A DNA stretch of 64,000 bases, from IMG/VR virus record IMGVR_UViG_3300005611_000021, positions 743 through 64,742 of that record; one strand, written 5' to 3'. Below the pieces are notes generated by a model, which made no database searches, was not told the origin of the DNA, and saw only the letters and a list, made by a program, of their open reading frames with translations. Both the position numbers and the translations under genes were made by a program. Origin of the DNA: a virus (lineage: Duplodnaviria > Caudoviricetes). The number at the start of each line of letters is the position of its first letter. Positions within the stretch are counted from its first letter, which is position 1. Shown one piece after another: positions 1 to 64,000 of this stretch.

Positions 1-2
1 TA

Positions 3-2756: not shown

Positions 2757-2757
2757 G

Positions 2758-2988
2758 CTATTCGCTTCTCGCCTGGTGCATTATCAAACTCTTCTCGTGG
2801 ATGCCTTCGTAAATGTCACCCAAAGAGTGAACATCATAGAACCAGCCTCCAAAGCGTGTTTCATCTCGATAAGCCTCTGATACTACGACACCAGACTGGA
2901 TCACAGCAGGGGCGCCCGGAGGGGCGATATTGAAGAAGACTTGATCCTCTTCATAGAATTTCGGACGGAATGAACGGATGGGAATCAT
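2758..2988 (-). CDS. Small protein with MIPIR N-terminal tag
   Basis: 76 aa, starts MIPIRSFR; ATGA-coupled. Confidence 0.8.
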   Translation of the reverse strand: MIPIRSFRPKFYEEDQVFFNIAPPGAPAVIQSGVVVSEAYRDETRFGGWFYDVHSLGDIYEGIHEKSLIMHQARSE

Positions 2989-3209
2989 AGCCTCGAGACT
3001 ACATCACACGAGACATGGTATCTCTTTCCGTTTGTATCCAGCTCAACAACATAGGTTGCCTTCCGGATACCCCTTCCGTCATCAACGAGTTGCTGAATCT
3101 TTCCCGTGTAAACTGAGAGGCCATCCCCAATATCTATACGACACCACACGAGTTCACCTGTAAGGAATTCGCCTTCGCCTTTTTTGGATGATCTGACTGG
3201 GATGCTCAC
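2985..3209 (-). CDS. Small protein with MSIPVR tag, SH3/KOW-like
   Basis: 74 aa; GELVWCRIDIGDGLSVYTGKIQ beta-barrel-like pattern; ATGA-coupled. Confidence 0.8.
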   Translation of the reverse strand: MSIPVRSSKKGEGEFLTGELVWCRIDIGDGLSVYTGKIQQLVDDGRGIRKATYVVELDTNGKRYHVSCDVVSRL

Positions 3210-3643
3210 ATTTCACCCTCCCATGGCTTGAGAACCGCGCTCGACTCGAGGTAGAATTTCCCATTGTGCATGAGGAGGTACCATGGGAGGTTTTTGATTG
3301 TCCCTTTTTCGCACATCTCTCTGTACGCTGGCCCAGGTTTCGTGAAGTCGATATGTAATCCTGATCCAATCCTCACGAGCATCTTGAGGACGATAGCGAC
3401 CGCATCATTCGGGAGATATCCCGCCCGAGCCTCCGTGAATGGGACAGCCTTTCCAGTGAGCCAGATGGCGGCATTCCACTTGCACTCTCGCATGTAGGAG
3501 GAGTATCTGGCCTTGACTGGGGGGCCACCCGCGACAGATGACAGAACGCGGCATTTGGGGCGAAGGACAACCGCATCACTTTCTTTATACCAGAGGGTCC
3601 ATTTTTCCGTTACAGGGATTTTGCCTCGGATTGGAATGCTCAT
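3206..3643 (-). CDS. Protein with MSIPIR tag (145 aa)
   Basis: Start re-assigned to ATG at 3643, which overlaps the upstream stop (ATGA). Confidence 0.8.
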   Translation of the reverse strand: MSIPIRGKIPVTEKWTLWYKESDAVVLRPKCRVLSSVAGGPPVKARYSSYMRECKWNAAIWLTGKAVPFTEARAGYLPNDAVAIVLKMLVRIGSGLHIDFTKPGPAYREMCEKGTIKNLPWYLLMHNGKFYLESSAVLKPWEGEM

Positions 3644-3876
3644 TCTGCGGATAACTCCGTATACCAATAATTGCGATAGATGGGGGCGTCTTTCCACGCA
3701 TTTATTTCCACCTGACACATTCGTTTTTCCGGCCAGGTCGCCACAACCGTTCCCGCGTATCCACGGAATCCGCACCCCTGCTTCTGGATGAATACCGTGT
3801 CTCCACAAGTGGCTTCATTGAGTGGAGTGTACCAGGTTCGACTACTGCCATGCCATGCTCTTACTGGAATGCTCAT
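3640..3876 (-). CDS. Small protein with MSIPVR tag, KOW-like
   Basis: Start at 3876 (ATGA overlap); CGDTVFIQKQGCGFRGYAGTVV. Confidence 0.8.
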   Translation of the reverse strand: MSIPVRAWHGSSRTWYTPLNEATCGDTVFIQKQGCGFRGYAGTVVATWPEKRMCQVEINAWKDAPIYRNYWYTELSAE

Positions 3877-4277
3877 CTCGAGTTCTTCTTTCGCTTGATT
3901 CTCCAGACTGCCGGCTCGTGTATGTATCCAAGGCGAGAATCCGGGGTCCATGTGTCCGGGTTGGCATCCAGCCAGACTTCAGATGCAATGAAGGGTTTTG
4001 TTTGGAATTTGTATTTCCATGAGTCTACACGAATCCCATGCTCATCACTCACCCATTCCTTTTGTATGAGCCGAACACAGATACTTTGTTTGTATGTGTG
4101 GTGCTGGAGGATGTATGGCCGATGGAAGTCAAATGAGAGGTCAGAGACAAACTTGAATGTCGTGGAAACAAGTGGCTTCGCCTTTATACCCATGGTTAGC
4201 CTTCCTCGGGTGAATGAGAACAGGGCTGTCTTCTCCGCATCAATACGATGGATTGTATTCAGAACCGGGATGCTCAT
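3873..4277 (-). CDS. Protein with MSIPVL tag
   Basis: Start at 4277 (ATGA overlap). Confidence 0.75.
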   Translation of the reverse strand: MSIPVLNTIHRIDAEKTALFSFTRGRLTMGIKAKPLVSTTFKFVSDLSFDFHRPYILQHHTYKQSICVRLIQKEWVSDEHGIRVDSWKYKFQTKPFIASEVWLDANPDTWTPDSRLGYIHEPAVWRIKRKKNSR

Positions 4278-4606
4278 GATGGGAATGGCATTTTGAAGTG
4301 TCTCAACACGATGGCCTTCACTTGTGGATGCCTGATGCCCGCACAACCCTTCCAGCCTTCAATCTTTGGAACGACAAACTTGAGACTGCCTCGTGTGCAG
4401 ATCAAGTCCTCATTCCACCAATACTGGCCATCACCCCATGCGAATGCCGCGGTAATGTTCTTAATGTCAGGAATCCGGATCACAAGGGCATGACGGATGC
4501 CATATCTCCGTTGAGCGGCCTCAAGGTAAGTATCCGCGAATTCGATGATATTGGTTTCAATGTTGCCAACGTCCCGATCCCAAACGGCTCTGACTCGTAA
4601 ACTCAT
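4274..4606 (-). CDS. Small protein with variant tag MSLRVR
   Basis: 110 aa; ATGA-coupled at both ends. Confidence 0.75.
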   Translation of the reverse strand: MSLRVRAVWDRDVGNIETNIIEFADTYLEAAQRRYGIRHALVIRIPDIKNITAAFAWGDGQYWWNEDLICTRGSLKFVVPKIEGWKGCAGIRHPQVKAIVLRHFKMPFPS

Positions 4607-4830
4607 CGCTTCGCCTCCGGGATGTATTGCAGCTCATCATCTAGTGACCAGCCGGGTGTCACGAGATCCAGGTCAATCTCGACATGGTAATCGAGACCAA
4701 TAGGCTTCACGATTGCCGTGGATTCCCGAACCTCAATAGCGCGACCGACAAGCCCATAGTGATCTCGATGCCAGATCGTGACCAACTTCCCTTCAATGAT
4801 CCTCTCCATGCCTTTGATGGGGATGCTCAT
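4603..4830 (-). CDS. Small protein with MSIPIK tag, SH3/KOW-like
   Basis: Start at 4830 (ATGA overlap); EGKLVTIWHRDHYGLVGRAIEV. Confidence 0.8.
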   Translation of the reverse strand: MSIPIKGMERIIEGKLVTIWHRDHYGLVGRAIEVRESTAIVKPIGLDYHVEIDLDLVTPGWSLDDELQYIPEAKR

Positions 4831-5039
4831 AAGACCTCGATTTCCTCCGGCTTGCAGGCCAGTCGCATGACTTTTCCCCTTGTTTCGTATTGCACCACAT
4901 AGGGCATGATGTTGTTCATATTCTCCTCGATCACGATGCCACCCTTGATGTCCTCGAATGAGGATGGCATCCGAAAGGTGAATCTGACTGCCCGGCCGAT
5001 TAAGGTTTTGCGTGCACGGAATGAACGAACCGGGATCAT
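4827..5039 (-). CDS. Small protein with MIPVR tag
   Basis: 70 aa, starts MIPVRSFR like the 2988 gene; ATGA-coupled. Confidence 0.8.
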   Translation of the reverse strand: MIPVRSFRARKTLIGRAVRFTFRMPSSFEDIKGGIVIEENMNNIMPYVVQYETRGKVMRLACKPEEIEVL

Positions 5040-5320
5040 ACGAGCATGTTCTTGATTTCGAATGGAACTTCATTAGCATCAACCTTCTGTACTTCGTGTA
5101 TGGAGAATGGGGTTTCCACCGTTTGCTCATCACGCACACCAGCTTCATGCAGGACAATGTATGGATATGGGACACCATCATGAATGCGTAGCAGTAACCC
5201 GTAGAATGAACCCAATGTTGCCGTGACCTTTACGAAGTCGCCCACCTTGAGGGTGAGCTCGTCCGCGATCTGCATGGCGGCCTCGGTGCTGATGTTGAGC
5301 GTCTTTATCGGGATGCTCAT
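5036..5320 (-). CDS. Small protein with MSIPIK tag, KOW-like
   Basis: Start at 5320 (ATGA overlap); KVGDFVKVTATLGSFYG. Confidence 0.8.
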   Translation of the reverse strand: MSIPIKTLNISTEAAMQIADELTLKVGDFVKVTATLGSFYGLLLRIHDGVPYPYIVLHEAGVRDEQTVETPFSIHEVQKVDANEVPFEIKNMLV

Positions 5321-5598
5321 ATTCCAGCAACAACATCGAGTGTCTTGGATGCTCGAAGTGTAGGTGACATGGCATAGCGGCCATAGGGTGAGATGCACTC
5401 CTCATTATCAACGATGGAGATGCCACGCCTTCTCTCGGCACCATCCACCATGATCGTGACGGTCTTTTCCGTGCGGGAGAGGACTTCATGCTTATAGATG
5501 CAATCGTAGTCGCCGATCGAGCGGGTTGCATAGACCTTTCCCACTTCAAACCGGATTGGAGCGATTGTGCTTTTGAGAGACTTGATTGGAATGCTCAT
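5317..5598 (-). CDS. Small protein with MSIPIK tag
   Basis: 93 aa; FEVGKVYATRSIGDYDC pattern; ATGA-coupled. Confidence 0.8.
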   Translation of the reverse strand: MSIPIKSLKSTIAPIRFEVGKVYATRSIGDYDCIYKHEVLSRTEKTVTIMVDGAERRRGISIVDNEECISPYGRYAMSPTLRASKTLDVVAGI

Positions 5599-8400: not shown

Positions 8401-9284
8401 TCGGTGATCCTGTGTGGTTTGTCGTCATCCTTGAGCACCAACTCAGCCTTGAGGATGGAGCGGTATGGGCAGTTTTCCCCTTGCATCACGTAATGGATGG
8501 CTGTCTGCATATCCCGTGCATTTGTCTGGATTCTGGCCTCTCCGCCATCATGCCTGACCGTTACCATGTATTTCTGATTTTCGTAGGGGTTTTGGCCTCC
8601 AACTGAGTTCTCGAAACGTAGTGGCATCACGATGGCCGTCAGCTTGCACTGCGGGCGAGGAGTTGTGATCTCAAGTGCTCCATTCGGAACCTCCCGCAGG
8701 TGATGCAACACCTCACTACCCCCAAGCCCCTTGTGTACATACATCGTGTTCTCAAGATACTTGTAGTTATAGGTATTGCTGGCTATCGTGAGGATGTTGT
8801 GAATGTACGTGCTTTCACTTCGATTCGGCCTGACTGTCCCAATGTTTTTGCCTCCACGTTTTGGGATGTCAATGGGATCTGTCGGGTCCGGGTATTTTAA
8901 CTCGGATGGTGAGATCTCCATGACCTTCGTGTTGAGCTTCAGGATGCGGAATGACGGAACCTTGATTTCCTTGTTCTCGGGAACTTCATGTCGGTAGGAC
9001 TCAACAAACGCATCAATCATAGGGCCTTGTATATAGTGCAGGGTCCGCCCGGTTGTGGCCACGAGCGCCCATTCATCTTGGATCTTCACGATCCCGATTC
9101 CCTGGAGAGCGGGGCGGGCATTGCCCCCTCCCACTTCCTTGCCCATGGGACCATTCATGGATGCGGCATTGAGCCATTTCATCACAGGCACGAATTCCTT
9201 CCAGTCCCTTGCTGCGAGTGTTGTATCGATCCCGTATGTAGGGATGGCCTTTAGGTGGACGTGTGAGATTGTGTGTTTACTCAT
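8397..9284 (-). CDS. DNA polymerase III beta-clamp-like protein (partial, divergent)
   Basis: RPALQGIGIV...LVATTGRTLH resembles the clamp motif RPxLxG...LVATDGHRL; AIVMPLR resembles the clamp C-terminal VMPMR. Confidence 0.55.
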   Translation of the reverse strand: MSKHTISHVHLKAIPTYGIDTTLAARDWKEFVPVMKWLNAASMNGPMGKEVGGGNARPALQGIGIVKIQDEWALVATTGRTLHYIQGPMIDAFVESYRHEVPENKEIKVPSFRILKLNTKVMEISPSELKYPDPTDPIDIPKRGGKNIGTVRPNRSESTYIHNILTIASNTYNYKYLENTMYVHKGLGGSEVLHHLREVPNGALEITTPRPQCKLTAIVMPLRFENSVGGQNPYENQKYMVTVRHDGGEARIQTNARDMQTAIHYVMQGENCPYRSILKAELVLKDDDKPHRITE

Positions 9285-9916
9285 ATCTCGCGTTGTGCCC
9301 CTATGGCGATGGTGGAAGGTTTGACCTTCTCAAGCTTGAGGTTGATGGACTTGCCGAGATTCATGCGCTTCTCCGCGAAGTCATCCCGTGCAATAATGGT
9401 TTCTTTCATCTCCCAACAGTCACTCACTCCCCACTTGTTCATGAAATCCCCGAGCGCCGCCTGGAACTCGAAGTATTTGTCTTCCTTCTCCGCCTCAAGA
9501 CGCTCATGAATGATATCCGCCTTGAGTTCGATTCCATGGGATTCGTGGTAGTAGTCTCCGGAGTCATGGCCTGTCCCGTCGAAGATGTTTTCAATCTCAA
9601 CGATCTGGGCCTCATTGAGGGCATAGGCTCTCGTGGAGGGTTTGACTTGGAGGATACATCCATCAGGGAGTTCGACATTGAATGCCCCTGGAAGCCCTCC
9701 GAAGATACGCTTGCGGGCATTTTCGAGGAGTTGTTGCTTGATCTCACTTCCATCAACTTCTCCCTTGGCGATCTTTGCGGCCTCAATGGATTCATGGAGT
9801 TCGAGTAGTTCATCATCTGTCATTCCGATGTCGGATGGGACGATTCTTGGTGTTTTGCTTTTGCTTCCGCTTGTTTTAGTTGTGCGGATGGCTTTCTTTT
9901 TCGTTGTAATAGGCAT
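9281..9916 (-). CDS. Hypothetical protein
   Basis: 211 aa, basic N-terminus, A/C-rich leader. Confidence 0.7.
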   Translation of the reverse strand: MPITTKKKAIRTTKTSGSKSKTPRIVPSDIGMTDDELLELHESIEAAKIAKGEVDGSEIKQQLLENARKRIFGGLPGAFNVELPDGCILQVKPSTRAYALNEAQIVEIENIFDGTGHDSGDYYHESHGIELKADIIHERLEAEKEDKYFEFQAALGDFMNKWGVSDCWEMKETIIARDDFAEKRMNLGKSINLKLEKVKPSTIAIGAQREI

Positions 9917-9918
9917 GG

Positions 9919-10071
9919 TTAATGGCCCTTTCTATTGTTGGTGTTTTCGGTTGATTCGGTTGATTTTACTTCTTTTGGGTCGAACATCGACAGAAACGCA
10001 TCAGCTGCCCCATTGATGAGGGCAAGTGTGACGAGTTTCGCTTTTTGGCAGAAGGTGAGCTGGATCTTCAT
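9919..10071 (-). CDS. Small hypothetical protein (50 aa, not in ORF track)
   Basis: MKIQLTFCQK...; ATG overlaps the ligase stop and fills the gap. Confidence 0.5.
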   Translation of the reverse strand: MKIQLTFCQKAKLVTLALINGAADAFLSMFDPKEVKSTESTENTNNRKGH

Positions 10072-10685
10072 CGTGTGGAGAACCTGAATTTGATCCAGTT
10101 GCCGCTCACCTGTGTTGGCGACTGGATTTGATGGGGATACTTGGATTTGGCCTTCACAGCGACAACACCCTCAACGACTGGTTGAGTCTCCCGGTTGCGC
10201 TTCATGATCCCCTTGGCCATGTTGATGAGGCTATTGTATCGATCCGTGTTGAACGATGAGCCATACCACCATGGGAGAATGAGGATTTTGGAATCCGCTT
10301 TGAGTGGTTTTGGCATCGGGATGGTTTCCTCGAACTCAGGGAATCCGAGAGTTTCCAGACGCTTCATGCAATCCTCAAAGGAATCCTTGCGTTCAGGTAG
10401 GTCCAGGAATGCGATATGGTTCTTCATCCAGATGGATTTGCACATCCACTCACAATCGAACCACTCGTCACTGACTTGGAGTTCTTCCCGGAACTTCCGC
10501 AACTCCTCGAGAGGGATGTTTTTTCCTTTGGTGTAGCGAACACCATGCCGGTTGAACATCTCTCCCGTGATAACATTGACCAATACTCGATCCCCATTGA
10601 CTTTGGGGCGAAATATGTGGTCGTGCATGTGCTTAGTGATTCTAGGCCCTCCGTTTCGAGGCCGTGCTGGGTAGGTAGGTATCAT
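10068..10685 (-). CDS. ATP-dependent DNA-ligase-like adenylation domain (no OB domain)
   Basis: Motif I PKVNGDR, III FDCE, IIIa FLDL, IV EGVVAVK, V WIKFR in correct order; 205 aa. Confidence 0.7.
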   Translation of the reverse strand: MIPTYPARPRNGGPRITKHMHDHIFRPKVNGDRVLVNVITGEMFNRHGVRYTKGKNIPLEELRKFREELQVSDEWFDCEWMCKSIWMKNHIAFLDLPERKDSFEDCMKRLETLGFPEFEETIPMPKPLKADSKILILPWWYGSSFNTDRYNSLINMAKGIMKRNRETQPVVEGVVAVKAKSKYPHQIQSPTQVSGNWIKFRFSTR

Positions 10686-10900
10686 TCTCTACACACGAAC
10701 ATCAAGTGTTCGGGCTTGAATCCGGTATGGACATATCTGTCATTTTCATCAGACCAGATCTTAACTCCATAAGCGCGGAGACCCGGCTTTGGTGTAGACT
10801 CGATTTTGCCATGCACGTTGAAGAAATCCCCTCTATGGAGGACAAGAACGGTGTCACCGATTTGATATACACGCTCATGCCTTCGAATCGGTATGCTCAC
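10682..10900 (-). CDS. Small protein with MSIPIR tag, KOW-like
   Basis: GTG start; QIGDTVLVLHRGDFFNVHGKI. Confidence 0.8.
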   Translation of the reverse strand: MSIPIRRHERVYQIGDTVLVLHRGDFFNVHGKIESTPKPGLRAYGVKIWSDENDRYVHTGFKPEHLMFVCRE

Positions 10901-11102
10901 AGAATGCTTTCTTTGGAGTAAGCATTACCTTTTCCGCAGCGATGGGTGGGCATCTGACGCATTCATCTTCCTGAGAACCTTGTCCAACGCTTAGGCTTCC
11001 TTCGCTCGTGAGCTCTCCATGAATCCCGTGATTGGACCCGCATGAGTGTGAGGGTCTTGGGGATTTGCTTCACACAAAACCAGACACGGAAGATCAACTG
11101 CC

Positions 11103-11798
11103 TCATGACTTGAATTTCCTTCGCAGGACATGCCCGACAATGGACAGGTATGAGGTGAATAGATCCTGAACGCTTTCCCTGACGATACTCTTATCGAAGT
11201 AGTTTGCGAGGACTTCCTGCTGTTTCTGGTAGCCAACGTACAAGCCAATACAGGAGACCCCGTGCTTTCGCCAGAGCGTAGGCTCGAGAGCTTCATCTTG
11301 GATGTTGGCATCCGTGTAACAGGTCACAAGGTCGGACTTTGTGACATCATCCATGAACGTCCTGAACGTCTGGGATATGCCCTCATAATTGTGGGAGGCG
11401 GATAGGCATGACCACACCCAGTCCGGCTGTGGCAAGGGTACCTTGAATCCATTCTCCCTGCGACTGCTCGTGTAGCCCGTACAGAGAATGTTTGCGTTGA
11501 TGAGCTTCCGTTGGTGAAGGCGACTCATGATGGCGCACAACTGAACCGCTCCATCCATGGGACTTCCTGACATGGAGCCAGAACAATCCACGATGACTGT
11601 GACGGTGGGGATTCCCTCTTCATTCGGTTTTGGCCGCTTGAAGTAGCCTTCCATTGACTTCCTTGCGATGGCCTTCATATCCACACGCCCGGATGAGAAT
11701 GTCCTGATCTTCCCATGCCCGCCTTTGAAGGCTCTGGCAAAGGGCTGGACATTTCTATCTGCGAGCTTGGTATCGACTGGGTAGTATCCGATACTCAT
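11103..11798 (-). CDS. VWA (MIDAS) domain protein
   Basis: VIVDCSGSM MIDAS motif; YTDA. Confidence 0.8.
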   Translation of the reverse strand: MSIGYYPVDTKLADRNVQPFARAFKGGHGKIRTFSSGRVDMKAIARKSMEGYFKRPKPNEEGIPTVTVIVDCSGSMSGSPMDGAVQLCAIMSRLHQRKLINANILCTGYTSSRRENGFKVPLPQPDWVWSCLSASHNYEGISQTFRTFMDDVTKSDLVTCYTDANIQDEALEPTLWRKHGVSCIGLYVGYQKQQEVLANYFDKSIVRESVQDLFTSYLSIVGHVLRRKFKS

Positions 11799-12955
11799 CA
11801 GTGTCCGAATGGAGAGAAGTAGTCGCCGGACAGCCCTAACTTCGCGAGCTGCATCTGTGCGGCCTGCTTGGATGATGGGACGGTCTCGATGGTGGATTCG
11901 TCTTCTGAATTCGCCTTGAGGTTCGTTCCTGTGCCTTTGAGTTTCTTCTTGTCATCGTGTGGATCTATGGGGTCTTCGTCCACGGTTTCTCCACCGTGAT
12001 CTTCCTCCTCTTTGTCCTCAAGCTGGAACTTTTCCCCTTTGGGGTCTTCTCCAGTTGCGACCTTGATGGCGATGAGGAAGTCCTCTCCCGGTCCTGCGAG
12101 CTGTGGGATCTCCCGATTACCCGGAAAGAGTTCCTGCCATGCTTTGCAGAAGGGCAGGATGCTTTCCGTTGTTGGGTAACGGTGATGGGAGTTCCTTCCC
12201 GCGAGTTGCCTCCATAGACTGAGGAATGTCCCGAATCCGATGTCCTTACAGGGGCCAATTCGGTAGGTTCCTTTGTGCGTCTTGAAGGGGATTGTCTTCT
12301 TGGGGCCGGGGAAACCCTTGTTGATATCCCCGAATGTGGACACATATAGCTGCTTCAGTGCTTCAATGTTGACTTTGGTTCCTTCCGCTTGGATGAGGGC
12401 GAGCATCACGCTCTCAGGTGAATCCTCCCGCATTTTCGGTTTTTCCCAATAGAGCCAATCGAACTTCCGGATGCCATAGGATTCGGAATCCACGAGCGTT
12501 CCATCATAGGTGAGCTCCTGTGGATTGATCTGCTTGCCATCTTTGTAGGTTGGTCGTCGGCCACGCATGAGACCTTCGATCCGTGCATCTTCCAGCAGGT
12601 TGATGAGCGGGAATCCGACCTTTTCACTCGCAGCGAATTCCAGGAACTCCCGGAATAGCCTGGTCGTGTAGAGGCCATGGCCTACCTCGTGAAGGTAGGT
12701 TGATTTCGCATACTTCAGTTCCTTCCGGGATGATCGCTTTTCCTTGAGACGCTTGGGATGGTCAACCAAGCTAACGATGGTTGGGTTCATTTGGATGCGA
12801 TGAGTGCCCGTGTGGAACGACCAACAAGCGGTCGGTACCTCCGGATCATCCTTCCAGTTGAATGTCGCCTTGGTGTCGAGGGTGTCCAGCGTTCTTTCTA
12901 CGTGGACCTCCTCAATCCTTCGTTGGTCCCTTGGTGTGAGGAAGTCCTTACTCAT
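11798..12955 (-). CDS. CobT-N-like / HExxH metallopeptidase-like protein
   Basis: YLHEVGH and INLLEDARIE motifs; adjacent to VWA and AAA genes. Confidence 0.7.
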   Translation of the reverse strand: MSKDFLTPRDQRRIEEVHVERTLDTLDTKATFNWKDDPEVPTACWSFHTGTHRIQMNPTIVSLVDHPKRLKEKRSSRKELKYAKSTYLHEVGHGLYTTRLFREFLEFAASEKVGFPLINLLEDARIEGLMRGRRPTYKDGKQINPQELTYDGTLVDSESYGIRKFDWLYWEKPKMREDSPESVMLALIQAEGTKVNIEALKQLYVSTFGDINKGFPGPKKTIPFKTHKGTYRIGPCKDIGFGTFLSLWRQLAGRNSHHRYPTTESILPFCKAWQELFPGNREIPQLAGPGEDFLIAIKVATGEDPKGEKFQLEDKEEEDHGGETVDEDPIDPHDDKKKLKGTGTNLKANSEDESTIETVPSSKQAAQMQLAKLGLSGDYFSPFGH

Positions 12956-13356
12956 GCGGGCAGGATGTCCATCTCGATCGCATCTTCCGTGATGACCACT
13001 TGGAGGGTTGCCCCCTTCACGAGCATGGCCAAGCCCTTGTCGCTGATTTCAAGGACTTCAACGTAGTCGTCGCCACCAAGCTCAACATTAGGACCGAAGC
13101 CTTGTGCATACTCCACAAGTGGAAGCTTTTCGCCTTCCTCATTCAGGCCGCGGGAGAGTTCACTCTCCTCAACACCACTCATGAGATACACACCGGCATC
13201 TTTCACGATTTCAAGGTGTGCGGGAGGGGTTTCGTCCTCTTCGTAGTAGCATCCATAAGGATTTGAGAAGGCTTTGCCTTCCTTCTTTGCATCGATCGTC
13301 TCTTGAGCAAGAGCCACAAGGTTCTCGCTTGTCGGGAAACGGAATAAACCACTCAC
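12952..13356 (-). CDS. DUF3085-like protein
   Basis: IVKDAGVYLMS and GGDDYVE motifs. Confidence 0.6.
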   Translation of the reverse strand: MSGLFRFPTSENLVALAQETIDAKKEGKAFSNPYGCYYEEDETPPAHLEIVKDAGVYLMSGVEESELSRGLNEEGEKLPLVEYAQGFGPNVELGGDDYVEVLEISDKGLAMLVKGATLQVVITEDAIEMDILPA

Positions 13357-13357
13357 G

Positions 13358-14587
13358 TTAGAAGGACTTATTCACGATGGATTCCCATGCTTTCACCTGC
13401 TCGGTCATAGGCAGGCCGTCATGATCCTCGGCGACAAACCAAGTGTTGAAGCCGTCTGCCAGCAACTCGTCTTTGAGTTGTTTCTTGGCTTCGGATTCCT
13501 TTGGCTCATGAACGAGTGATATGAGGTGAGTGAATTCACGGATGCTCGGTGAGTTTTCGAGCAAGTGTTTCTTCTCAGCGTCAACGCCGGCCTTCCATAG
13601 GTTGATGAAGCAGGTCGTGATGTGATCTGTCCATCCACGAGTCTTCACAACTGGGCCAATTACATCCTTGATGAGGTTCACGGATGTGTCCGTGTAGAAT
13701 GGCTTGAACCTGGCTCGGATCGCCGGGGTGTCCGGCTCGCAATCGAACTTGGTTCCGCTATTCTGGGTGCCGATGATGGAGATGTTGGACATCGGTGCGG
13801 TGATCTTACGAGTCACCATGATGCCATCCTCTTCAACGGGTTCACCTGTATCAAGCGTGAGGTTGCCATCCGCGTCAGGTGATGTGGCCGTCTGGAAGGC
13901 TTGTTTTGCCTTGCGTGGGACGTTTCCAATCTCATCGAGGATGATACAGACTGATTTCCCGGCGGCGGCCAGGATGAACGCCTGAGCGAGTGGCCCATTG
14001 ATCCATTTGAAGTTTCCATCAGCCCCGATGCCTGGGCCTGCGATGAAATCCCGTGCTTCCATGTCAGCCATACATCCAACCTTGATGACGAGATCAAAGC
14101 CTGCGGTGTTGGCCCATTGGGTGACGGAAAACGTCTTGGAGGCGCCTGGGGGTCCCTTGAAGATGACAAACCATTTGCCTTCCCCGAGTTCCTGACCCGG
14201 ACGACAGAACTTCTCACAGTTGCGGAAGATGAGACTTCCTTTGCCGGATTTGGCCGCAATCTTCTTCGCTGACATGATGACTTTTTTCTTCTTCTCGTCA
14301 TCTGCCATTGCGGTCAGTTGATCCACCAAAGCAGCAGCGATTGCTGCCGTATCTACCTTAGATGCGAACTTTTTAGAAACGATCGCGAGTACATCATCAC
14401 AGAAGTTCTCATCCGGGTGAATGCCTTCCTTTTCCATGATGGCGATAATGTGAGACTCGAAGTCCTTATTCGCCTTGAGTTCAGCAAGGATGGCGTTCGG
14501 GTCTGCGGAGCCACCGATAGATTTGATTGCATCTTGGAGCTCTTTAGACTCCTTTACGGCCTCTACGAGTACGGGCGTTATGTCCAT
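13358..14587 (-). CDS. MoxR/CbbQ/CobS-type AAA+ ATPase
   Basis: Walker A GPPGASKT, Walker B IILDE, sensor GTQN, arginine finger RARF. Confidence 0.85.
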   Translation of the reverse strand: MDITPVLVEAVKESKELQDAIKSIGGSADPNAILAELKANKDFESHIIAIMEKEGIHPDENFCDDVLAIVSKKFASKVDTAAIAAALVDQLTAMADDEKKKKVIMSAKKIAAKSGKGSLIFRNCEKFCRPGQELGEGKWFVIFKGPPGASKTFSVTQWANTAGFDLVIKVGCMADMEARDFIAGPGIGADGNFKWINGPLAQAFILAAAGKSVCIILDEIGNVPRKAKQAFQTATSPDADGNLTLDTGEPVEEDGIMVTRKITAPMSNISIIGTQNSGTKFDCEPDTPAIRARFKPFYTDTSVNLIKDVIGPVVKTRGWTDHITTCFINLWKAGVDAEKKHLLENSPSIREFTHLISLVHEPKESEAKKQLKDELLADGFNTWFVAEDHDGLPMTEQVKAWESIVNKSF

Positions 14588-14889
14588 TAGGCTTCCTTCT
14601 CGATCCAGTCTTTTAGCGAGAGCTCGGTTTCATGAGAGGCAACTGCGGCAACCCATGCGGCCTTTTGAGCCTTTTTACGATTATCGCTGCTGAAGTCTGT
14701 CTGGAATGGACTTCCCTTGGATTTGGCTTCGTTTTCGATACGTAGTTTCACGGTTTGGTACACGTCATCCATAAACTGCTCGCTTGGTGTGTAACCAACT
14801 TCCATCATGCGTTCTTCCGCAAGATTCTTAATAGCCTCACGAACTTCCGCATTCCCTTTGAGGGCATTCAGTAGTTTCTCGGTCTTCAT
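14587..14889 (-). CDS. Hypothetical protein
   Basis: 100 aa, coupled at both ends. Confidence 0.65.
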   Translation of the reverse strand: MKTEKLLNALKGNAEVREAIKNLAEERMMEVGYTPSEQFMDDVYQTVKLRIENEAKSKGSPFQTDFSSDNRKKAQKAAWVAAVASHETELSLKDWIEKEA

Positions 14890-15104
14890 CGAATCAACTC
14901 CGCGAGGAAATCCATCTCTTGCTGCGTTGGGACATACGTACCAACCTCAACCTCATGCTCCTCGCATCCGACTTGTGCGAACTGCGTGGTCACTGGATGA
15001 TTAGCTCGGAGTTCTGAATAGCGGGAGAGGATTTCTCCAACTGATCTGGGCTCACGAGAGTTTTCACAAGCCTGCCGTAAGTGTGTCGCTGTGGATACAC
15101 TCAT
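14886..15104 (-). CDS. Hypothetical protein
   Basis: 72 aa, ATGA-coupled. Confidence 0.55.
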   Translation of the reverse strand: MSVSTATHLRQACENSREPRSVGEILSRYSELRANHPVTTQFAQVGCEEHEVEVGTYVPTQQEMDFLAELIR

Positions 15105-15223
15105 GCGTCTGTGATAGCAATCGTGGTTGTATTCCCCTGCGGGATCACCGTGAAGGCGACATTTCTTGCTATTAGATCGGACACTACGTCCTTTGTGTGT
15201 TTGGTTTCTATTGCTAATTTCAT
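15101..15223 (-). CDS. Small hypothetical protein (40 aa, not in ORF track)
   Basis: MKLAIETK...; AGGAG upstream; stop overlaps next ATG. Confidence 0.5.
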   Translation of the reverse strand: MKLAIETKHTKDVVSDLIARNVAFTVIPQGNTTTIAITDA

Positions 15224-15355
15224 GGCATTTTCTCCTACGTACCGGGGACTAACGGGTACGGGTCGTGTGAATTTCCCGTCCGGCTGACCAAGCCTTTCGG
15301 GGGGTGACGTTTAGAAGGGACTCCTACCGCTCGTCAGCACGGTAGGAGAATTACG

Positions 15356-15383
15356 AAATTGGGCCATCCCACCCAACCGATTA
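15356..15383. repeat. Conserved intergenic element, copy A
   Basis: aaattgggccatcccacccaaccgatta; ends in the stop codon of the 15381 gene. Confidence 0.7.
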
Positions 15384-15752
15384 TCGCAAGCTCAGAATCT
15401 TCGGAAGGCTGTAAACGCACCCATCCTCATCCTTCTCGAATTTGCAACGGACGATGTATCTACCATCATCCATCTTGACTCGAGAGGCGAGAATGCCTGA
15501 GCCTGAGCCTTCTTCGCACTGCACAAGGTTCAAGCACTTGCGATTGAAGGCCATATCACTATCGCCAAATCGCACCCAGTACACATCATCCATGTGTCCT
15601 ACGTTTACAAGGATTCCCCTTTGCCCGATACGTGAGCGGGTCCTCTCAGACCACACGTTGCCCCTCAAGGGTTTGAACCCTTTTGGGACGGTATCCACGA
15701 CCTCAACGACCCAGTGGCGTCCCTGGTCGCGGGCACGGACGGGGATGCTCAT
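15381..15752 (-). CDS. Protein with MSIPVR tag
   Basis: 123 aa; IGQRGILVNVGHMDDVYWVRFG barrel-like pattern; ATGA overlap. Confidence 0.8.
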   Translation of the reverse strand: MSIPVRARDQGRHWVVEVVDTVPKGFKPLRGNVWSERTRSRIGQRGILVNVGHMDDVYWVRFGDSDMAFNRKCLNLVQCEEGSGSGILASRVKMDDGRYIVRCKFEKDEDGCVYSLPKILSLR

Positions 15753-16453
15753 ACCGCAATCCCCTTTGCCTCTAGGAGGGGGTTGATGTGATCCTTGAGG
15801 CGGATTACGCTTCCACTCTCAAGACGTGCCCAGAAGACCTCATGCTCGCCTCCTGTGGAATCCGTAGCGAGGTCGTTTGCCAGCATTCTTGCGAATGTCA
15901 TGTCGGAGGTAGGGGGATGCAGCTGGCCGCTACTGGATTGGAGGACTTCCACGCCCTCGCAGAGGAGAGCGATGAGAGCTTCCCATGTTGCTCGGATGCT
16001 GAAGTTTTCACGAGCTGCCTTGCACAACGGATGGGTGAACAACGCTGCATATCGTTTCTTGCGATTGAGTGAGGTCAGTTTCTTCTCGAGTTCGAGCAGT
16101 CTGGCTGCACGAGACTTGGCTGCGGCCGCAGATTCCTCTTTGCCCTTCAGGAAGGCGATGAATTTTTCCTCTTTCTCACGCTTTTCCGCTTGGCGGAGTG
16201 CGTTACGTAGGTTTCTAGCCTTGACTCGTGAGGATTTTGCATCGCGAGCGATTTGAGCAAACTCATCCCTAGCGATGAGTCGTCCGTCATCGGTCATTAC
16301 CATCATCTGCAACTCTTCTCTCGCAGGGTCTCGTGGCTTTGGCGTGGTCATCGCTCTTTCGAGCTTTTGGGCGGCTGCCCGTCTGAGGTTGGCTTTGAGG
16401 AGTGCTTGATCCTCGCGGCGTTGCTGGATGTCGTGTGTATTTGGTTTTTTCAT
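15749..16453 (-). CDS. Hypothetical coiled-coil protein
   Basis: Probable start MKKPN at 16453 after an aaccgaaa leader. Confidence 0.65.
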   Translation of the reverse strand: MKKPNTHDIQQRREDQALLKANLRRAAAQKLERAMTTPKPRDPAREELQMMVMTDDGRLIARDEFAQIARDAKSSRVKARNLRNALRQAEKREKEEKFIAFLKGKEESAAAAKSRAARLLELEKKLTSLNRKKRYAALFTHPLCKAARENFSIRATWEALIALLCEGVEVLQSSSGQLHPPTSDMTFARMLANDLATDSTGGEHEVFWARLESGSVIRLKDHINPLLEAKGIAV

Positions 16454-16498
16454 TTCGGTTTTTCGGTTGTGAGCGATTCGTTGTGAATCCCTCGGGTT

Positions 16499-16525
16499 AA
16501 ATTGGTCCATCCCACCACCCGATTA
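16499..16525. repeat. Conserved intergenic element, copy B
   Basis: aaattggtccatcccaccacccgatta. Confidence 0.7.
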
Positions 16526-17110
16526 GCCCTCGTCACACACACACATGAGCGTGTCTAAGCCGGAGAGACAGCGCTTGCAAAAGCCGATATGCGGCAAGAT
16601 AGCTTTCACGATCTCAACGGCCGTCGTGTCCAGGGGAAGAGACGCTGCGATCGGGAAGGGCGCTGTAAATCTGTCGTACGGGTCATACCCGTAGAATTCG
16701 TATCCGTCTTCCTCGCGGATCAGAAGGTTCTCCTCGCCTTGCACTTCGAGGTAGTAAGCGTCCATACAGACGCAGACGCCCCCTTGCCCATAGATCTCGC
16801 AGATCTTCGCAAGGATCACCCCTGCGATGTCGAGAGTGCTTGAGAAGGGCAAGGCTCCGTCAATGCCTGCCTTTGCGAATGGGTTCGTGGAAGAGGAGTA
16901 AGCGAGGGCATTCGCGACCCTCACAATCTCGTCACCTTCCAATGCGGCCGCAAGGCGGGCGTTTTTCATTACGACAACCCAGATGTTCAACGATGGCAGA
17001 TACCGAGCATCCACGCGCTCGGTTTTGGCCCAGTTTGTTTCCGTTTCCAAGACACGGAATATAGCGTCAGTATTGAGAAGGCTGACATCCTTCGCTTGAT
17101 TCGCTGGCAT
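16523..17110 (-). CDS. Hypothetical protein
   Basis: 195 aa; GAAAGGA upstream; C-terminal CxxC...CxC. Confidence 0.7.
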   Translation of the reverse strand: MPANQAKDVSLLNTDAIFRVLETETNWAKTERVDARYLPSLNIWVVVMKNARLAAALEGDEIVRVANALAYSSSTNPFAKAGIDGALPFSSTLDIAGVILAKICEIYGQGGVCVCMDAYYLEVQGEENLLIREEDGYEFYGYDPYDRFTAPFPIAASLPLDTTAVEIVKAILPHIGFCKRCLSGLDTLMCVCDEG

Positions 17111-33846: not shown

Positions 33847-34872
33847 ATGTATAAAAATACACACGCAGTAATTCGTCACGACCTAAACGCATTTGTCGAG
33901 GAGGCAGCTTCCACCGACAAACTTTTAATCGGCGCCAAGCTTTGCCCAATGCTTCCGGTTGATGCCCGTGCGGGTCTCTATCCGAAGATTGAAATCGGCA
34001 ATGGCGGTGAACTCCTGAAAAAGGATGCAACCCTTCGTGGTCCTACTGGTACCTACAACGAAACAACCCGCAAATTCATCACTGATACTTATGAGTGTCT
34101 TGATCGTGGTCTCGAGGAGCGGATTGACGATGTTGTAGTTCGTGACTACAAGAAGTTTTTTGATGTCGAGGTTCTTACAGCCAAGCTCATTATGCGTACC
34201 ATGAAGCTTGATTATGAATCTCGTATTTATGATCTCCACCAAACCATCGGTAATTTCCTTAGCCTGGACGCATCTGATGTCAGTCAAAATGGCAATGGAC
34301 CTACAAATAAGACCTGGGGAACGGTTGATGGTCTGGCAGAGTGTGACTTCGCTCTCTTTCTTATGAATCTGATTCGCCAACTGACTATGCGGGGTGAAAC
34401 TCCAAATACATTGGTGATCGGTGAAGAGGCATGGAAGTTTATGCGTCGCACCACCAAACTCAACACTTTCCTCTATGGTTCTCTCGGTACTGGCCTTGGC
34501 TATAAGATGGTCTCGGAAGCTGATATCGCAAAGCAGTTTAGGCTGTCCAATGTGTATATCGTTCACGCCCACATCGATAGTGCAGCTCGCAATAAAGAGG
34601 CAAGCCTGACCCCGCTTTGGGACAATAATAAGGTTTGGCTCGGTGAGGTAAAAGGAGGGGAAATCTCCGGCGGTGGCGCATCCCGTACAATGTGCTGGAC
34701 CCCTGATGGTAGCGGCCTCTTCACCACTGAAACTTACCGGAATGAAACCCGGAGAGGGGATATGGTGCGTGTCCGTCATCACACAGCCGAAAAAATCGTT
34801 AACAAAAATGCTGGTGTCATTGGTCATTTCGCAGCTGCGAATGCTCATGCCAATAGCATCACTTGGAACTAA
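33847..34872 (+). CDS. Major capsid protein (lambda gpE/Mu-like HK97 fold)
   Basis: 341 aa after protease and cement genes; PNTLVIGEEAW; VRVRH near C-terminus; followed by a terminator. Confidence 0.9.
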   Translation: MYKNTHAVIRHDLNAFVEEAASTDKLLIGAKLCPMLPVDARAGLYPKIEIGNGGELLKKDATLRGPTGTYNETTRKFITDTYECLDRGLEERIDDVVVRDYKKFFDVEVLTAKLIMRTMKLDYESRIYDLHQTIGNFLSLDASDVSQNGNGPTNKTWGTVDGLAECDFALFLMNLIRQLTMRGETPNTLVIGEEAWKFMRRTTKLNTFLYGSLGTGLGYKMVSEADIAKQFRLSNVYIVHAHIDSAARNKEASLTPLWDNNKVWLGEVKGGEISGGGASRTMCWTPDGSGLFTTETYRNETRRGDMVRVRHHTAEKIVNKNAGVIGHFAAANAHANSITWN

Positions 34873-60627: not shown

Positions 60628-61240
60628 CGACACGGAGAGCCTTGAGAAGACCTTGGCTCACATCCGTAAGCACACGGAGCCTGGCACATATAGGATCTGT
60701 CTCGAGGATACGGGATCAACCCGGCGTGAGCATATCGACTACATCCACTCCATTGAGCGTGATGTGTCCTATGTCCATTTCAACATCAACCCAGTGTATG
60801 ATGTCGGGGGATACCTCCATGCGATAAAGACATTTGATTCGCCTGGTGGATTTTTCTTTATGCAGGACTCCCTTTATCCTGTCCGGGATGGATGGCTTGA
60901 TCGCGTCTCGAGTGTGGATGTCGGTGTGCCCTTTCGTCAGAGCATGTCAATCGAGTGGGGCAAGCATAAGGGCTTTTGTGAGGAACACATGGGGGGAACG
61001 CTCCCGGATGAACTCCCTAAGTATCTTATTCAGTATAACACCTTCTATGCGAGCCAAGGGGTGGCCAAGAACCTCGTTTTTAGCCTGGATGCACCCATTC
61101 CCTCTCACAAAGAGCATTCTCAAGGATATGAGAGGTTGCTGCCCTTCTACTTTCAATTCATGGGGATTACTCCTCATTTTATTGACTCAACCTATTTTAA
61201 GAAAATACATTGGTCGGAGCGTTCTCTCCGTCCACAATAA
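60590..61240 (+). CDS. GT2-like glycosyltransferase
   Basis: Probable start MKTPIL; EDTGST; YDVGGY; FFMQDS; YERL. Confidence 0.55.
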   Translation: MKTPILLVISTNNDTESLEKTLAHIRKHTEPGTYRICLEDTGSTRREHIDYIHSIERDVSYVHFNINPVYDVGGYLHAIKTFDSPGGFFFMQDSLYPVRDGWLDRVSSVDVGVPFRQSMSIEWGKHKGFCEEHMGGTLPDELPKYLIQYNTFYASQGVAKNLVFSLDAPIPSHKEHSQGYERLLPFYFQFMGITPHFIDSTYFKKIHWSERSLRPQ

Positions 61241-61263: not shown

Positions 61264-61689
61264 ATGATAGTACAGTTCAAAAAACTCCATCCGAAAGCTC
61301 AAGCCCCTGTCAAACAACACGACCGGGATGCTGGCTTCGATATTCATTGCCTTGGCAAAGAGTATGCCAAGCTCGACAAGCTTCAGGTCGTCGTGAAGAC
61401 AGGCTTGGCCGTCGACATCCCTGAAGGTTATGTTGGCCTCCTCTTCCCTCGTAGCTCCATTTCCCGCACGGATATGAGTCTATCCAATTCCGTTGGTGTC
61501 ATTGATTCCGGGTATCATGGGGAAATCCTGGGCAAATTCAATTACCATGGCCCGGATCACTATGATGAAGGGGATCGCTGCCTTCAGCTCATCATTATGC
61601 CAATTCCATCCATCAACTTCCAAGAGGTTGAAGAATTCGAGAGTGATAGCGAGAGGGGAATCAAAGGCCACGGATCAACTGGTAAATGA
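61264..61689 (+). CDS. dut: dUTPase (trimeric)
   Basis: AGFDI, FPRSS, GVIDSGYHGE, CLQL, RGIKGHGSTG. Confidence 0.95.
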   Translation: MIVQFKKLHPKAQAPVKQHDRDAGFDIHCLGKEYAKLDKLQVVVKTGLAVDIPEGYVGLLFPRSSISRTDMSLSNSVGVIDSGYHGEILGKFNYHGPDHYDEGDRCLQLIIMPIPSINFQEVEEFESDSERGIKGHGSTGK

Positions 61690-61967
61690 TTCCAATCAGG
61701 CCCTTTCCTAAAGTCTGGCCTGCATCTGAATACTTAGATACCCATCGAGTCACCAAGAACTACTCAGACGGAACCATTTTATTCCGGATGAGGATGGGTA
61801 TTTCCTTCATAACAACTGGATCTCTCCTCGTTCTGAAGGAAATACAAAGAAATGGAGATGTTTTCATTTCTTGTGTGAAGGTCATCAGGATTGTTGAGAT
61901 ACAAGAGACCGCGGCCGTGAAGTGTGAGCCTGCTCAATACTTCCCCTGGATGGAGGAATTGCTATGA
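61686..61967 (+). CDS. Small protein with MIPIR tag
   Basis: 93 aa; ATGA-coupled to dut. Confidence 0.75.
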   Translation: MIPIRPFPKVWPASEYLDTHRVTKNYSDGTILFRMRMGISFITTGSLLVLKEIQRNGDVFISCVKVIRIVEIQETAAVKCEPAQYFPWMEELL

Positions 61968-62056
61968 GCATACCCGTAAGACGCAAACGTAAGATCCCTA
62001 TCGTCATCCTTAGTGAAGCGATCAAGAGAGGAACAACAAAGAGAGGAATGACATGA
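61964..62056 (+). CDS. 30-aa peptide with MSIPVR tag (not in ORF track)
   Basis: MSIPVRRKRKIPIVILSEAIKRGTTKRGMT; ATGA overlaps at both ends. Confidence 0.65.
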   Translation: MSIPVRRKRKIPIVILSEAIKRGTTKRGMT

Positions 62057-62352
62057 TACCTGTACGAAGTAAGAGATTCAGGCCATTACGCCTCAAGATG
62101 CGGGACAATGCCAAGCTTGTCGCTCAAGCTAAACAGGAGGAAATTTCTCGCCCTCAACGCTTTGAAGTCGATTGCAGTAGTAAGAACATCTATCTCTCAT
62201 ACCACCCTGGCTATGGACAAGTAATCAAATACAACCATCCAAACGCACGGGAGGGGGATCGCTGCATCTTCAAATGGGTGAACCTGCATCCGGGTGTTGG
62301 GACATATTATGGGGTTTACTTAGGTAAAGGATTGTGGAGGGCAAGGTCATGA
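62053..62352 (+). CDS. Small protein with MIPVR tag
   Basis: 99 aa; ATGA-coupled. Confidence 0.75.
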   Translation: MIPVRSKRFRPLRLKMRDNAKLVAQAKQEEISRPQRFEVDCSSKNIYLSYHPGYGQVIKYNHPNAREGDRCIFKWVNLHPGVGTYYGVYLGKGLWRARS

Positions 62353-62657
62353 TCGAATACAAAGTGGATAAAGTCTTCCGGGATCTCATAGGCACGAAAG
62401 CCTGGACCATGGTAGATACCTCAAAAATCGAAGCTGCGAGTGCTGAAGGGTGCGAGTTATGTATAACTCATGTGAATTCCCTTGGGATGGTCGTTGGCCG
62501 TCAAACCATTGAGCCTGAAGAGGTAGATGACCTACCCCGCAATCAGGCCGTGATGCTCGGGAATAAGCATTTCACCTTCGTAGACTGGGAGGAAGATACC
62601 GATCGGAAGCATCGGCTTCATGGATGTAAACAAGACACGTTCTTTGATGAGTATTGA
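62349..62657 (+). CDS. Hypothetical protein (untagged)
   Basis: Probable start MIEYK; ATGA-coupled. Confidence 0.65.
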   Translation: MIEYKVDKVFRDLIGTKAWTMVDTSKIEAASAEGCELCITHVNSLGMVVGRQTIEPEEVDDLPRNQAVMLGNKHFTFVDWEEDTDRKHRLHGCKQDTFFDEY

Positions 62658-62899
62658 TGAGCATTCCTGTCCGAGCATGTATGCTTGATGTGTATTGCAT
62701 CTGCCACCTTAATGAGGATGATGAGCTCATTCGCCCTGTTGAATACATCAAGACCGATGAATACGAATGCAGTGATGAGGATGCTAAGTTGATCGCTCAG
62801 GGTTTGATGACCATTGAGTATGAGAGGATGTCACCATTCGACTATTACCCGGATTACCTTGAGTTCCTTGTGAATGGCCTGGAGGCGATGTGGTCATGA
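62657..62899 (+). CDS. Small acidic protein with MSIPVR tag
   Basis: TGATG overlap. Confidence 0.75.
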   Translation: MSIPVRACMLDVYCICHLNEDDELIRPVEYIKTDEYECSDEDAKLIAQGLMTIEYERMSPFDYYPDYLEFLVNGLEAMWS

Positions 62900-63141
62900 G
62901 TATTCCTGTTGTAAAGTTCACTCGGTTTATTGAGTTCAATGAGGTAGTCTATGTGAAGCCTCTCGACACATGGGGGTTTATGGATCGGGTAAAGACCACA
63001 CCATACGGGCTTAGGGTGTATCGGGTGCGCTTCCTCTATCGCTCTCCTCAATGGTTTTGTCGCATACAGCTCCAGGTGAGAGAAGAGTGTAAGGATGAGG
63101 GCACATTACGTTGGTTTAATAACTTCGATACGAGACGATGA
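62896..63141 (+). CDS. Small protein with MSIPVV tag, SH3-like
   Basis: ATGA overlap; VYVKPLDTWG...YRVRF...WF similar to the next gene. Confidence 0.75.
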   Translation: MSIPVVKFTRFIEFNEVVYVKPLDTWGFMDRVKTTPYGLRVYRVRFLYRSPQWFCRIQLQVREECKDEGTLRWFNNFDTRR

Positions 63142-63383
63142 GCATCCCTGTCCGTACATCGCCACGTCTTCGTCCACGCCTCTCGCTTGGTCAGGCCGTG
63201 TATGCCCATGACTTTGACGCTTATGGGATTGTGGATGGCACAAAGATGAGTCCAGTCAGGCGAGGGGTCAGACTGTACCGGGTGCGCTTCAAGTATGAGC
63301 ATCACTGGTTTACACGTAACCAGATCCAAACCAAGGATGAGCATCACCGATCAACGGCAAATGATGATGGCTATGGAGAATAG
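63138..63383 (+). CDS. Small protein with MSIPVR tag, SH3/KOW-like
   Basis: LGQAVYAHDFDAYGIVDG...YRVRF...WF. Confidence 0.8.
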   Translation: MSIPVRTSPRLRPRLSLGQAVYAHDFDAYGIVDGTKMSPVRRGVRLYRVRFKYEHHWFTRNQIQTKDEHHRSTANDDGYGE

Positions 63384-63404
63384 GGCGTTGGCCATGGATA
63401 AGGT

Positions 63405-63671
63405 ATGAGCATTCCTGTCCGCATGAGAGCCACGATACTTCACGATTATGATGTGGAGCCTAAGGTGCATAGATGGTCCATAGCGACCAATTCTGATGGT
63501 CAAAAGTGGCTCGCTCTCATCATGGATAAACAGCCTTGGCATAATGCTAAAGGGCATCGCTTACGCTTCTGCACTCTAGCACATGACCTTATGTGTAAGT
63601 ATGAATACTTCAGTGTGTACTTAGGTCAAGGTGATGGCCTCTATAAGTATGTCTTTCGGGTATGGCGTTGA
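63405..63671 (+). CDS. Small protein with MSIPVR tag
   Basis: 88 aa. Confidence 0.75.
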   Translation: MSIPVRMRATILHDYDVEPKVHRWSIATNSDGQKWLALIMDKQPWHNAKGHRLRFCTLAHDLMCKYEYFSVYLGQGDGLYKYVFRVWR

Positions 63672-63714
63672 AACCTTGCCGCCGCGCGAGCCTGTTGACA
63701 CCAGGGCGGAGAGT

Positions 63715-63912: not shown

Positions 63913-64000
63913 TTCACTCTGCGGGAAACTGCGCATTGAGCAAAGCTCAACCTGCAAGGAATCTATTAGAGGGGTGGGGAAGAGTCGAAGGTCATGCCAC

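Follow-up and report, generated by a model that had tools for sequence, protein, structure and literature searches.

A short N-terminal peptide shared by 19 small proteins of an uncultivated phage

A peptide shared by 19 small proteins

The stretch of DNA analysed here, called the window, consists of the 64,000 nucleotides at bases 743-64742 of the 64,742-bp IMG/VR record IMGVR_UViG_3300005611_000021, which derives from an uncultivated phage of the Caudoviricetes with a 65-kb genome. The record is judged to be 97% complete. Many of the small proteins encoded in the window begin with the same short peptide, M(S)IP[VI][RK]. This tag, or a close variant of it, is carried by 19 of approximately 93 genes, seven on the plus strand and 12 on the minus strand. 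Its conserved core is I-P-[VI]-[RK]. I-P-[VI] is present in 18 of the 19 proteins, and the variant has L-R-V at this place. The basic residue is replaced by L or V in three proteins, and 12 of the 19 have S, A, G or T directly after the tag. The tagged proteins are 30 to 145 amino acids long, with isoelectric points (pI) from 4.1 to 12. Genes are referred to below by their coordinates in the window or by the lower of these (Table 1).

The right-hand cluster lies directly downstream of dut. Eight tightly packed plus-strand genes occupy 61686-63671, and seven of them start with M(S)IP[VI][RK/V]; the TGA stop codon of dut overlaps the ATG of the first. The original prediction had described seven tagged genes out of eight at this place, and all seven starts were found where it had put them. 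It had also noticed a second copy of the motif in a 30-amino-acid open reading frame (ORF) of this cluster, 61964-62056, and this copy is present as KIPIV. A second in-frame I-P-[VI] after the tag is likewise found in 3206, and 5317 contains the variant IAPIR; by a rough estimate, approximately 0.1 such second copies are expected. The left cluster is on the minus strand, and one of its ten genes (4274-4606) has the variant start MSLRVR. Two more tagged genes are isolated. The tagged genes, at 2.7-5.6, 10.7, 15.4 and 61.7-63.7 kb, are co-oriented with the genes for DNA metabolism and not with the head genes; the gene for the major head protein (HK97-type by PHROG match) is at 33847-34872. The start of the untagged member of the right-hand cluster, MIEYK (62349-62657), and MSLRVR in the left cluster both follow a hydrophobic-x-hydrophobic-basic pattern without the Pro. 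Both starts could be variants of the tag that have decayed or are tolerated.

Table 1. Tagged genes and the genes adjoining them, in window coordinates
Feature	Position	Strand	Remarks
dut (dUTPase)	61264..61689	+	Last annotated gene before the tagged run; Pfam dUTPase 4.9e-18, PHROG 135 3.4e-46
Tagged gene, MIPIR, 93 amino acids	61686..61967	+	ATGA overlap with dut; no Pfam, PHROG or phage tblastn match
30-amino-acid ORF, MSIPVR-RKRK-IPIV..., pI 12	61964..62056	+	ATGA overlap at both ends; GGAGG 7 nt upstream; two I-P-[VI] cores
Tagged gene, MIPVR-SKRFRP, 99 amino acids	62053..62352	+	Basic linker; no relatives found
Untagged gene, MIEYK..., 102 amino acids from ATG 62349	62349..62657	+	Sole untagged member of the run; ATGA-coupled
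Tagged gene, MSIPVR, 80 amino acids	62657..62899	+	Acidic, pI 4.1; predicted alpha/beta at low confidence
Tagged gene, MSIPVV, 81 amino acids	62896..63141	+	Paralogue of 63138 (BLASTP 2.5e-11)
Tagged gene, MSIPVR, 81 amino acids	63138..63383	+	Body after the tag modelled as a small SH3/KOW-like barrel
Tagged gene, MSIPVR, 88 amino acids	63405..63671	+	Last gene of the run; 21-nt spacer, own ribosome-binding site
First (left) cluster, ten consecutive ATGA-coupled tagged genes	2758..5598	-	Starts 2988, 3209, 3643, 3876, 4277, 4606, 4830, 5039, 5320, 5598
Isolated tagged gene, MSIPIR, 72 amino acids, GTG start	10682..10900	-	Tag at the N-terminus
Isolated tagged gene, MSIPVR, 123 amino acids	15381..15752	-	Tag at the N-terminus

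The tag occurs far beyond chance. Strict matches on ORFs of at least 30 amino acids number 17; in 200 Markov shuffles, the mean was 0.23 and the highest count was 2. Sixteen of the 17 are among the 19 tagged ORFs, and the remaining one, at 46214, is judged spurious. Inside the remaining phage proteins, the motif shows no enrichment. When scored by a codon usage learned from the large genes, every tagged ORF is best in its own frame or, in two cases, tied with the antisense; the score of the 30-amino-acid ORF is weak (+5 bits). Furthermore, an independent metagenome contig, L151, is 99.1% identical over 3,038 nt and carries an identical tagged cluster, all differences being located upstream, in 60973-61184. 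A chance pattern, an artefact of ORF calling or a repeated DNA might be suspected from the other database matches to the DNA pattern, which were tandem DNA repeats (G006 and several metagenome contigs). However, the number of tags, their reading frames, the second source of the cluster and the unrepeated flanking DNA all speak against such an origin, to which we give a negligible probability.

Selection on the tag acts at the level of amino acids and not of nucleotides. Across tag codons 3-6, pairwise identity reaches 0.77 for the first two codon positions but only 0.33 for the third; in the 18 nt following the tag it is 0.27, which is the random level. All four Pro codons are in use in the tags (CCA, CCC, CCG and CCT, 5, 4, 4 and 5 times), and the basic position is encoded by CGT, CGA, CGC, AGA, AGG, AAA and AAG. 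Since third positions are random and all Pro codons, as well as CGN, AGR and AAR, are found, it is the peptide that is held constant. A nucleotide motif, such as a promoter, an operator or a recombination site, was rejected because of the random third positions. One feature is seen at the nucleotide level: the Ser of the tag is AGC in 13 of 15 cases, whereas AGC makes up 8% of the Ser codons genome-wide. All 19 tagged starts read RTGA, mostly from an upstream stop codon that overlaps the start. The second codon is therefore Ser (AGY) or Ile (ATH), hence the MS-IP and M-IP forms of the tag.

Gene 5317-5598 and the relatedness of the bodies

In gene 5317-5598, the tag is an add-on. The body of its product is homologous to an untagged 77-amino-acid protein from another assembly (56% identity). 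Further untagged homologues, all hypothetical proteins of unrelated phages, are found in Clostridium phage Saumur, Butyrivibrio viruses Arian and Bo-Finn, Dulem virus 34, and Clostridium phages CS266P1-4. All matches begin at residue 14-17 of the tagged protein. The homologues themselves begin M-x-K-[RTK]-FE[VI]GK, with three or four residues ahead of the conserved FE[VI]GK, and the tagged protein has 11 extra N-terminal residues, which comprise the tag, the linker and a second copy, I-A-P-I (alignment A4). The adjacent genes 5036-5320 and 5317-5598 share tag and linker (IPIKTLNISTEA and IPIKSLKSTIAP) and have different bodies. Over the first 36 nt from the Ile codon, the two are 0.61 identical, the highest value of 171 pairs (mean 0.39). 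Because the 11-residue add-on is absent from the homologues and resembles the N-terminus of 5036, tag and linker form a module that has become fused to a foreign body; in-frame capture behind the coupled start of the neighbour is the simplest route. Judged from these two genes, the tag probably spreads by the copying of 5' ends between neighbours. New genes had been predicted to acquire the tag repeatedly, and this is borne out for one gene, which belongs to the left cluster.

The body family of 5317-5598 is small and unannotated, with the pattern FE[VI]GK.Y..RS...C....V..RT..T...P.G.Y.M.P. Its members are found near an Arc-like repressor in Clostridium phage Saumur and near a Cro/CI regulator gene in Butyrivibrio virus Arian.

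The bodies of the tagged proteins are largely unalignable. With the tag removed, the sole detectable pair of paralogues is 62896/63138 (BLASTP 2.5e-11). A hidden Markov model (HMM) built on seven barrel-like bodies of the left cluster detected no other tagged body above the background of six-frame ORFs, and searches of the tagged proteins against Pfam, PHROGs and PDB sequences gave nothing significant. A moderately confident ESM Atlas model of 63138, with a predicted local distance difference test (pLDDT) score of 0.68, has small barrels as structural neighbours, namely S4e KOW-like, DUF2158 and SNF2 N-domain barrels. The structural alignments mostly begin at residues 7-12, so the tag lies outside the modelled fold. 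In contrast, 62657 is predicted to be alpha/beta, at low confidence. A loose segment, G-[DE]-x-V-x-hydrophobic, recurs 7-20 residues past the tag in approximately 12 of the 19 proteins, and a subset of the tagged bodies may therefore be old barrel paralogues. The CsrA/RsmA family was considered for 10682, which resembles the N-terminus of that family, MLILTRR...IGD.V.V, but it was rejected: PF02599 (CsrA), run on the six frames of the genome and on 10682, gave no match at E<=10.

The 30-amino-acid ORF exactly fills the gap between two tagged starts. It is probably translated as part of the coupled chain, as suggested by the ATGA overlaps at both ends, the GGAGG 7 nt upstream and the weakly positive frame score. 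The Lys codon of its second motif, K-I-P-I-V, is AAG, one base away from ATG. Together with the next gene (62053), it has the tag codons ATA (6% of Ile codons), CCN and GTA (12% of Val codons) and the peptide pattern IPVR-x-KR-xx-P, and the pair ranks joint third of 171 at the DNA level. These shared rare codons and the common peptide pattern point to a stub left by a partial duplication of the 5' end, a reading that we consider to have an even chance. It is at least as likely as the decoy that had been proposed, and a functional, bivalent mini-protein acting as a decoy or competitor seems unlikely.

Genome ends, array layout and distribution

The first 11 bases of the record are identical to its last 11 bases (GGTCATGCCAC, window 63990-64000; the first copy is outside the window), and L151 terminates on the same last base as the record. 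These two observations suggest that the record stops at a genuine end of the DNA molecule, such as a filled-in cohesive end, and not at an arbitrary assembly break. In G001, a relative, the genes homologous to those next to the two ends of the record are on one strand with 3.3 kb between them, the flanks being contiguous. Taken together with the identical ends and the stop of L151, this synteny indicates that gene order continues across the ends of the record. The two tagged clusters are therefore approximately 3.8 kb apart and are transcribed towards each other. The separation of 56 kb given in the original prediction is thus an artefact of where the linear record is cut, and it cannot serve as the argument against a single tandem duplication that was built on it. 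The conclusion itself stands on other grounds: neither cluster is a full-length copy of the other, since 62896/63138 is the only related pair and the HMM of the left bodies misses the right ones.

Between the two clusters, across the ends, are three plus-strand genes and a strong hairpin at 2726-2754. The hairpin has an 11-bp stem with seven G-C pairs and is followed by a T-run. It is placed where the plus- and minus-strand arms converge, just past the last gene of the left cluster, and is probably a two-way terminator. A promoter scan gave no excess over shuffles. The last tagged gene is directly followed by a GTTGACA at 63694-63700, with a GTG 21 nt further on at 63715; if GTTGACA is a real promoter, the tagged run closes a transcription unit there. 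The stretch at about 57.7-63.9 kb of the window contains a gene resembling cytidine monophosphate (CMP)-sugar synthetases, a putative glycosyltransferase gene, dut and the right-hand tagged cluster, and all of it is without counterpart in G001 (L033). The first two genes were named by reading the sequence and have no Pfam match. In G001 (L033), where the flanking homologues are 3.3 kb apart, very basic, Gly-rich proteins are encoded between them. In this lineage, the stretch is an accessory insertion.

Relatives whose terL is 65-70% identical share the structural and replication genes with this phage. The whole genomes of five of them (G001-G005) contained neither the tag nor homologues of the tagged proteins, and no different N-terminal word recurred in them. 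No match among phage records was obtained with megablast or blastn, and nothing came from tblastn against phages for P0001, P0002, P0003, P0009, P0010, 4274 and 15381 or the scans for loci related to P0002 and P0003. For the proteins of the right-hand cluster, no homologue was found in any collection searched. A profile of all 19 tagged proteins matched only itself among 5.8 billion proteins. A profile of 62896/63138, run against 1.84 billion representatives, returned itself and a mucin WxxW repeat protein, which was rejected as spurious since it matched via 'YRVRF'. A prophage relative was sought with the major head protein and none was found, and a literal text search of the literature for the tag gave nothing relevant.

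Tag patterns were also searched across IMG/VR and 241 million metagenome records, which returned the same phage again and false positives from tandem repeats. Among viral contigs, the two-tag pattern had G006 as its sole match, and this was rejected as a tandem DNA repeat of 36% GC. Among metagenome contigs, it matched L151, which is the same phage, and tandem-repeat junk only. The single-tag pattern gave 72 loci, none of which had two tagged ORFs. G006 (IMGVR_UViG_3300035181_001867, bases 1-17000), L154, L161 and L163 (Ga0224511) contain AT-rich tandem repeats that read MSIPI or MSIPV on one strand. Such repeats are a trap for pattern searches of the tag.

Possible roles of the tag

The reading that we favour, with a probability of about 0.5, is that the tag would be a transferable N-terminal module acting at the protein level, a common handle by which different small proteins are docked on or sorted to one partner. 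In this view, the module is M(S)IP[VI][RK] together with what comes after it, in most cases a small residue and then a short linker that is often basic. It is carried by 19 small accessory proteins whose bodies are heterogeneous, encoded by two convergent arrays beside the ends of the record and by two isolated genes. An extended strand of the type hydrophobic-x-hydrophobic-basic, held on a flexible tether, could bring these diverse proteins to the shared partner. The module would spread by in-frame fusion of a body to the 5' end (start codon, tag and linker) of a resident, translationally coupled gene. One candidate for the partner is the capsid, for which the capsid-targeting sequence (CTS) of T4 is the most concrete precedent. 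Another is a hub of the host, for example the groove of a small heat-shock protein (sHSP) or the N-domain of an AAA+ protein. The most specific form of this proposal is unlikely: an 'address label' of five residues, X-I-P-[VI]-[RK], that sends approximately 20 unrelated effectors to one hub (the I-x-I/V groove of a host sHSP or an AAA+ adaptor site), recruits new members by in-frame capture, and has the 30-amino-acid ORF as its bivalent competitor or regulator.

By analogy, the closest known system is the T4 CTS of IPI, IPII, IPIII and Alt. The CTS is a transferable N-terminal peptide on unrelated, small, often basic and fast-evolving accessory proteins from variable parts of the genome (PMC3012670). 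The phage described here is similar in that the same N-terminal peptide is found on 19 ORFs with unalignable bodies. However, the T4 CTS is approximately 10 residues or longer, ends with (L/I)-x-E and is cut by the prohead protease gp21, whereas the tag has five to six residues, of which the last is R/K (or L/V), and Glu is absent from its positions 1-6. The location of the tagged genes among those for DNA metabolism also differs from T4, and a head that packages 65 kb would have to take up 19 cargo proteins, a large number. A protease or scaffold of the T4 type was not recognised in the phage; several large proteins encoded between the portal and the major head protein have no Pfam or PHROG match. 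In encapsulins, a short C- or N-terminal peptide is sufficient to load diverse cargo inside a shell of the HK97 fold (PMC7355545). The major head protein of this phage is likewise assigned to the HK97 type, and the comparison is a lead only. Encapsulin loading peptides are rich in G, S and L and the cargo gene is located beside the shell gene, while the tagged genes are far from the head gene and their motif is different.

A docking motif on the host side is also conceivable. In the I-x-I/V motif of sHSPs and BAG3, Ile and Val bind, the middle residue is tolerant and the peptide docks in the beta4-beta8 groove; BAG3 uses two copies (PMC6212398). The core of the tag, I-P-V or I-P-I, is identical to this motif, the variant MSLRVR fits a tolerant middle, and two copies are present in 61964 and 3206. 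As in sHSP docking, the tripeptide is of the I/V/L-x-I/V/L type and placed in a flexible extension at the terminus, and the model of 63138 leaves it outside the fold. Almost all bacteria have Hsp20, as seen in control genomes, and the phage itself has no Hsp20/alpha-crystallin partner (no PF00011 match at E<=10). The known motifs are, however, C-terminal or internal and do not have a conserved basic residue, and no phage precedent is known, which leaves the likeness as a lead only. Conceptually, the tagged genes may also be compared with multi-copy precursors of ribosomally synthesized and post-translationally modified peptides (RiPPs), such as the prochlorosins, and with RxLR/PEXEL effectors, in which many genes share a short N-terminal element and the rest diversifies. 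RiPP leaders are 20-80 amino acids long and need a modifying enzyme, and RxLR/PEXEL motifs follow a signal peptide in eukaryotic pathogens. Unlike RiPP precursors, the tagged bodies are folded proteins of 70-145 amino acids.

Several points weigh against a docking handle. The common partner and its identity are what we infer from the sequence pattern, and the add-on status of the tag is established in 5317-5598 only. In the collections scanned, the tag is known from a single uncultivated lineage. Capsid targeting in particular is disfavoured by the absence of an acidic cleavage site like that of T4 and by the orientation of the tagged genes with those for DNA metabolism. AlphaFold predictions of 62657 alone and of 63138 with the paralogue alignment were unusable, with pLDDT of about 46. 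Lastly, the G-D-x-V-x-hydrophobic pattern would fit one old paralogous family. A lineage-specific family of this kind, consisting mostly of SH3/KOW/Tudor-like barrels that expanded in tandem and diverged, with the N-terminus as a conserved functional arm (for example a nucleic-acid-binding or dimerising strand) instead of a portable signal for sorting, is possible, though we hold it doubtful. It would account for the tandem, coupled arrays, the clear relationship of 62896 and 63138, the recurrent segment after the tag, the small barrels among the structural neighbours of 63138, and the absence of all these genes from the relatives of the phage. Sub-variants also cluster by position (MSIPIK in three left genes, two of them adjacent, and MIP-RS[FK]R in three genes), and the right-hand cluster has only Val at position 5. 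However, the body family of 5317 exists without the tag in other phages, lengths and pI values vary widely, 62657 is predicted to have another fold, at low confidence, and the HMM of the barrel bodies recognises no further tagged body above the six-frame background.

The tag might instead be a cassette for translation starts, in which start codon and first codons are passed on as one unit in the RTGA-coupled arrays, the nascent M-S-I-P-V-R or the AUGAGC context aids re-initiation or early elongation and no partner is recognised. The RTGA at all 19 starts, the bias for AGC, a constraint on nucleotides at +4 to +6, and the position of the tag always at the extreme start would agree with this, as would the apparent joining of new bodies to the 5' end of a neighbour. 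Past AUGAGC, however, the amino acids stay constant in spite of random wobble positions, and the conservative exchanges V/I and R/K are typical of protein recognition. Large, highly expressed phage genes and coupled genes such as 62349 do without the tag, and internal copies of I-P-[VI] would make no sense for initiation. We therefore regard this role as improbable. Slightly less probable still is a short propeptide or degron, with a protease that cuts after the basic residue (I-P-V-R / small residue) or reads the N-terminus and so times the activity or lifetime of the protein. Such a cut would fit the basic residue at tag position 6, which is position 5 in the MIP form, and the S, A, G or T that comes next in 12 of 19 proteins; T4 does remove its targeting sequence by proteolysis (PMC3012670). 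But no protease was recognised among the approximately 50 proteins scanned, the motif is not enriched inside other phage proteins, and the three proteins with L or V have no basic residue at the presumed cleavage site.

Should the tag serve for sorting or docking, it would define in one step approximately 20 proteins without functional annotation as acting at the same place, and it would offer a minimal, five-residue handle for finding their common partner. Besides T4, it would provide another, independent case in which diverse accessory proteins of a phage are targeted by a module. Furthermore, it would show a way in which a phage turns foreign small genes into members of a functional class, namely by fusing them to a resident 5' end.

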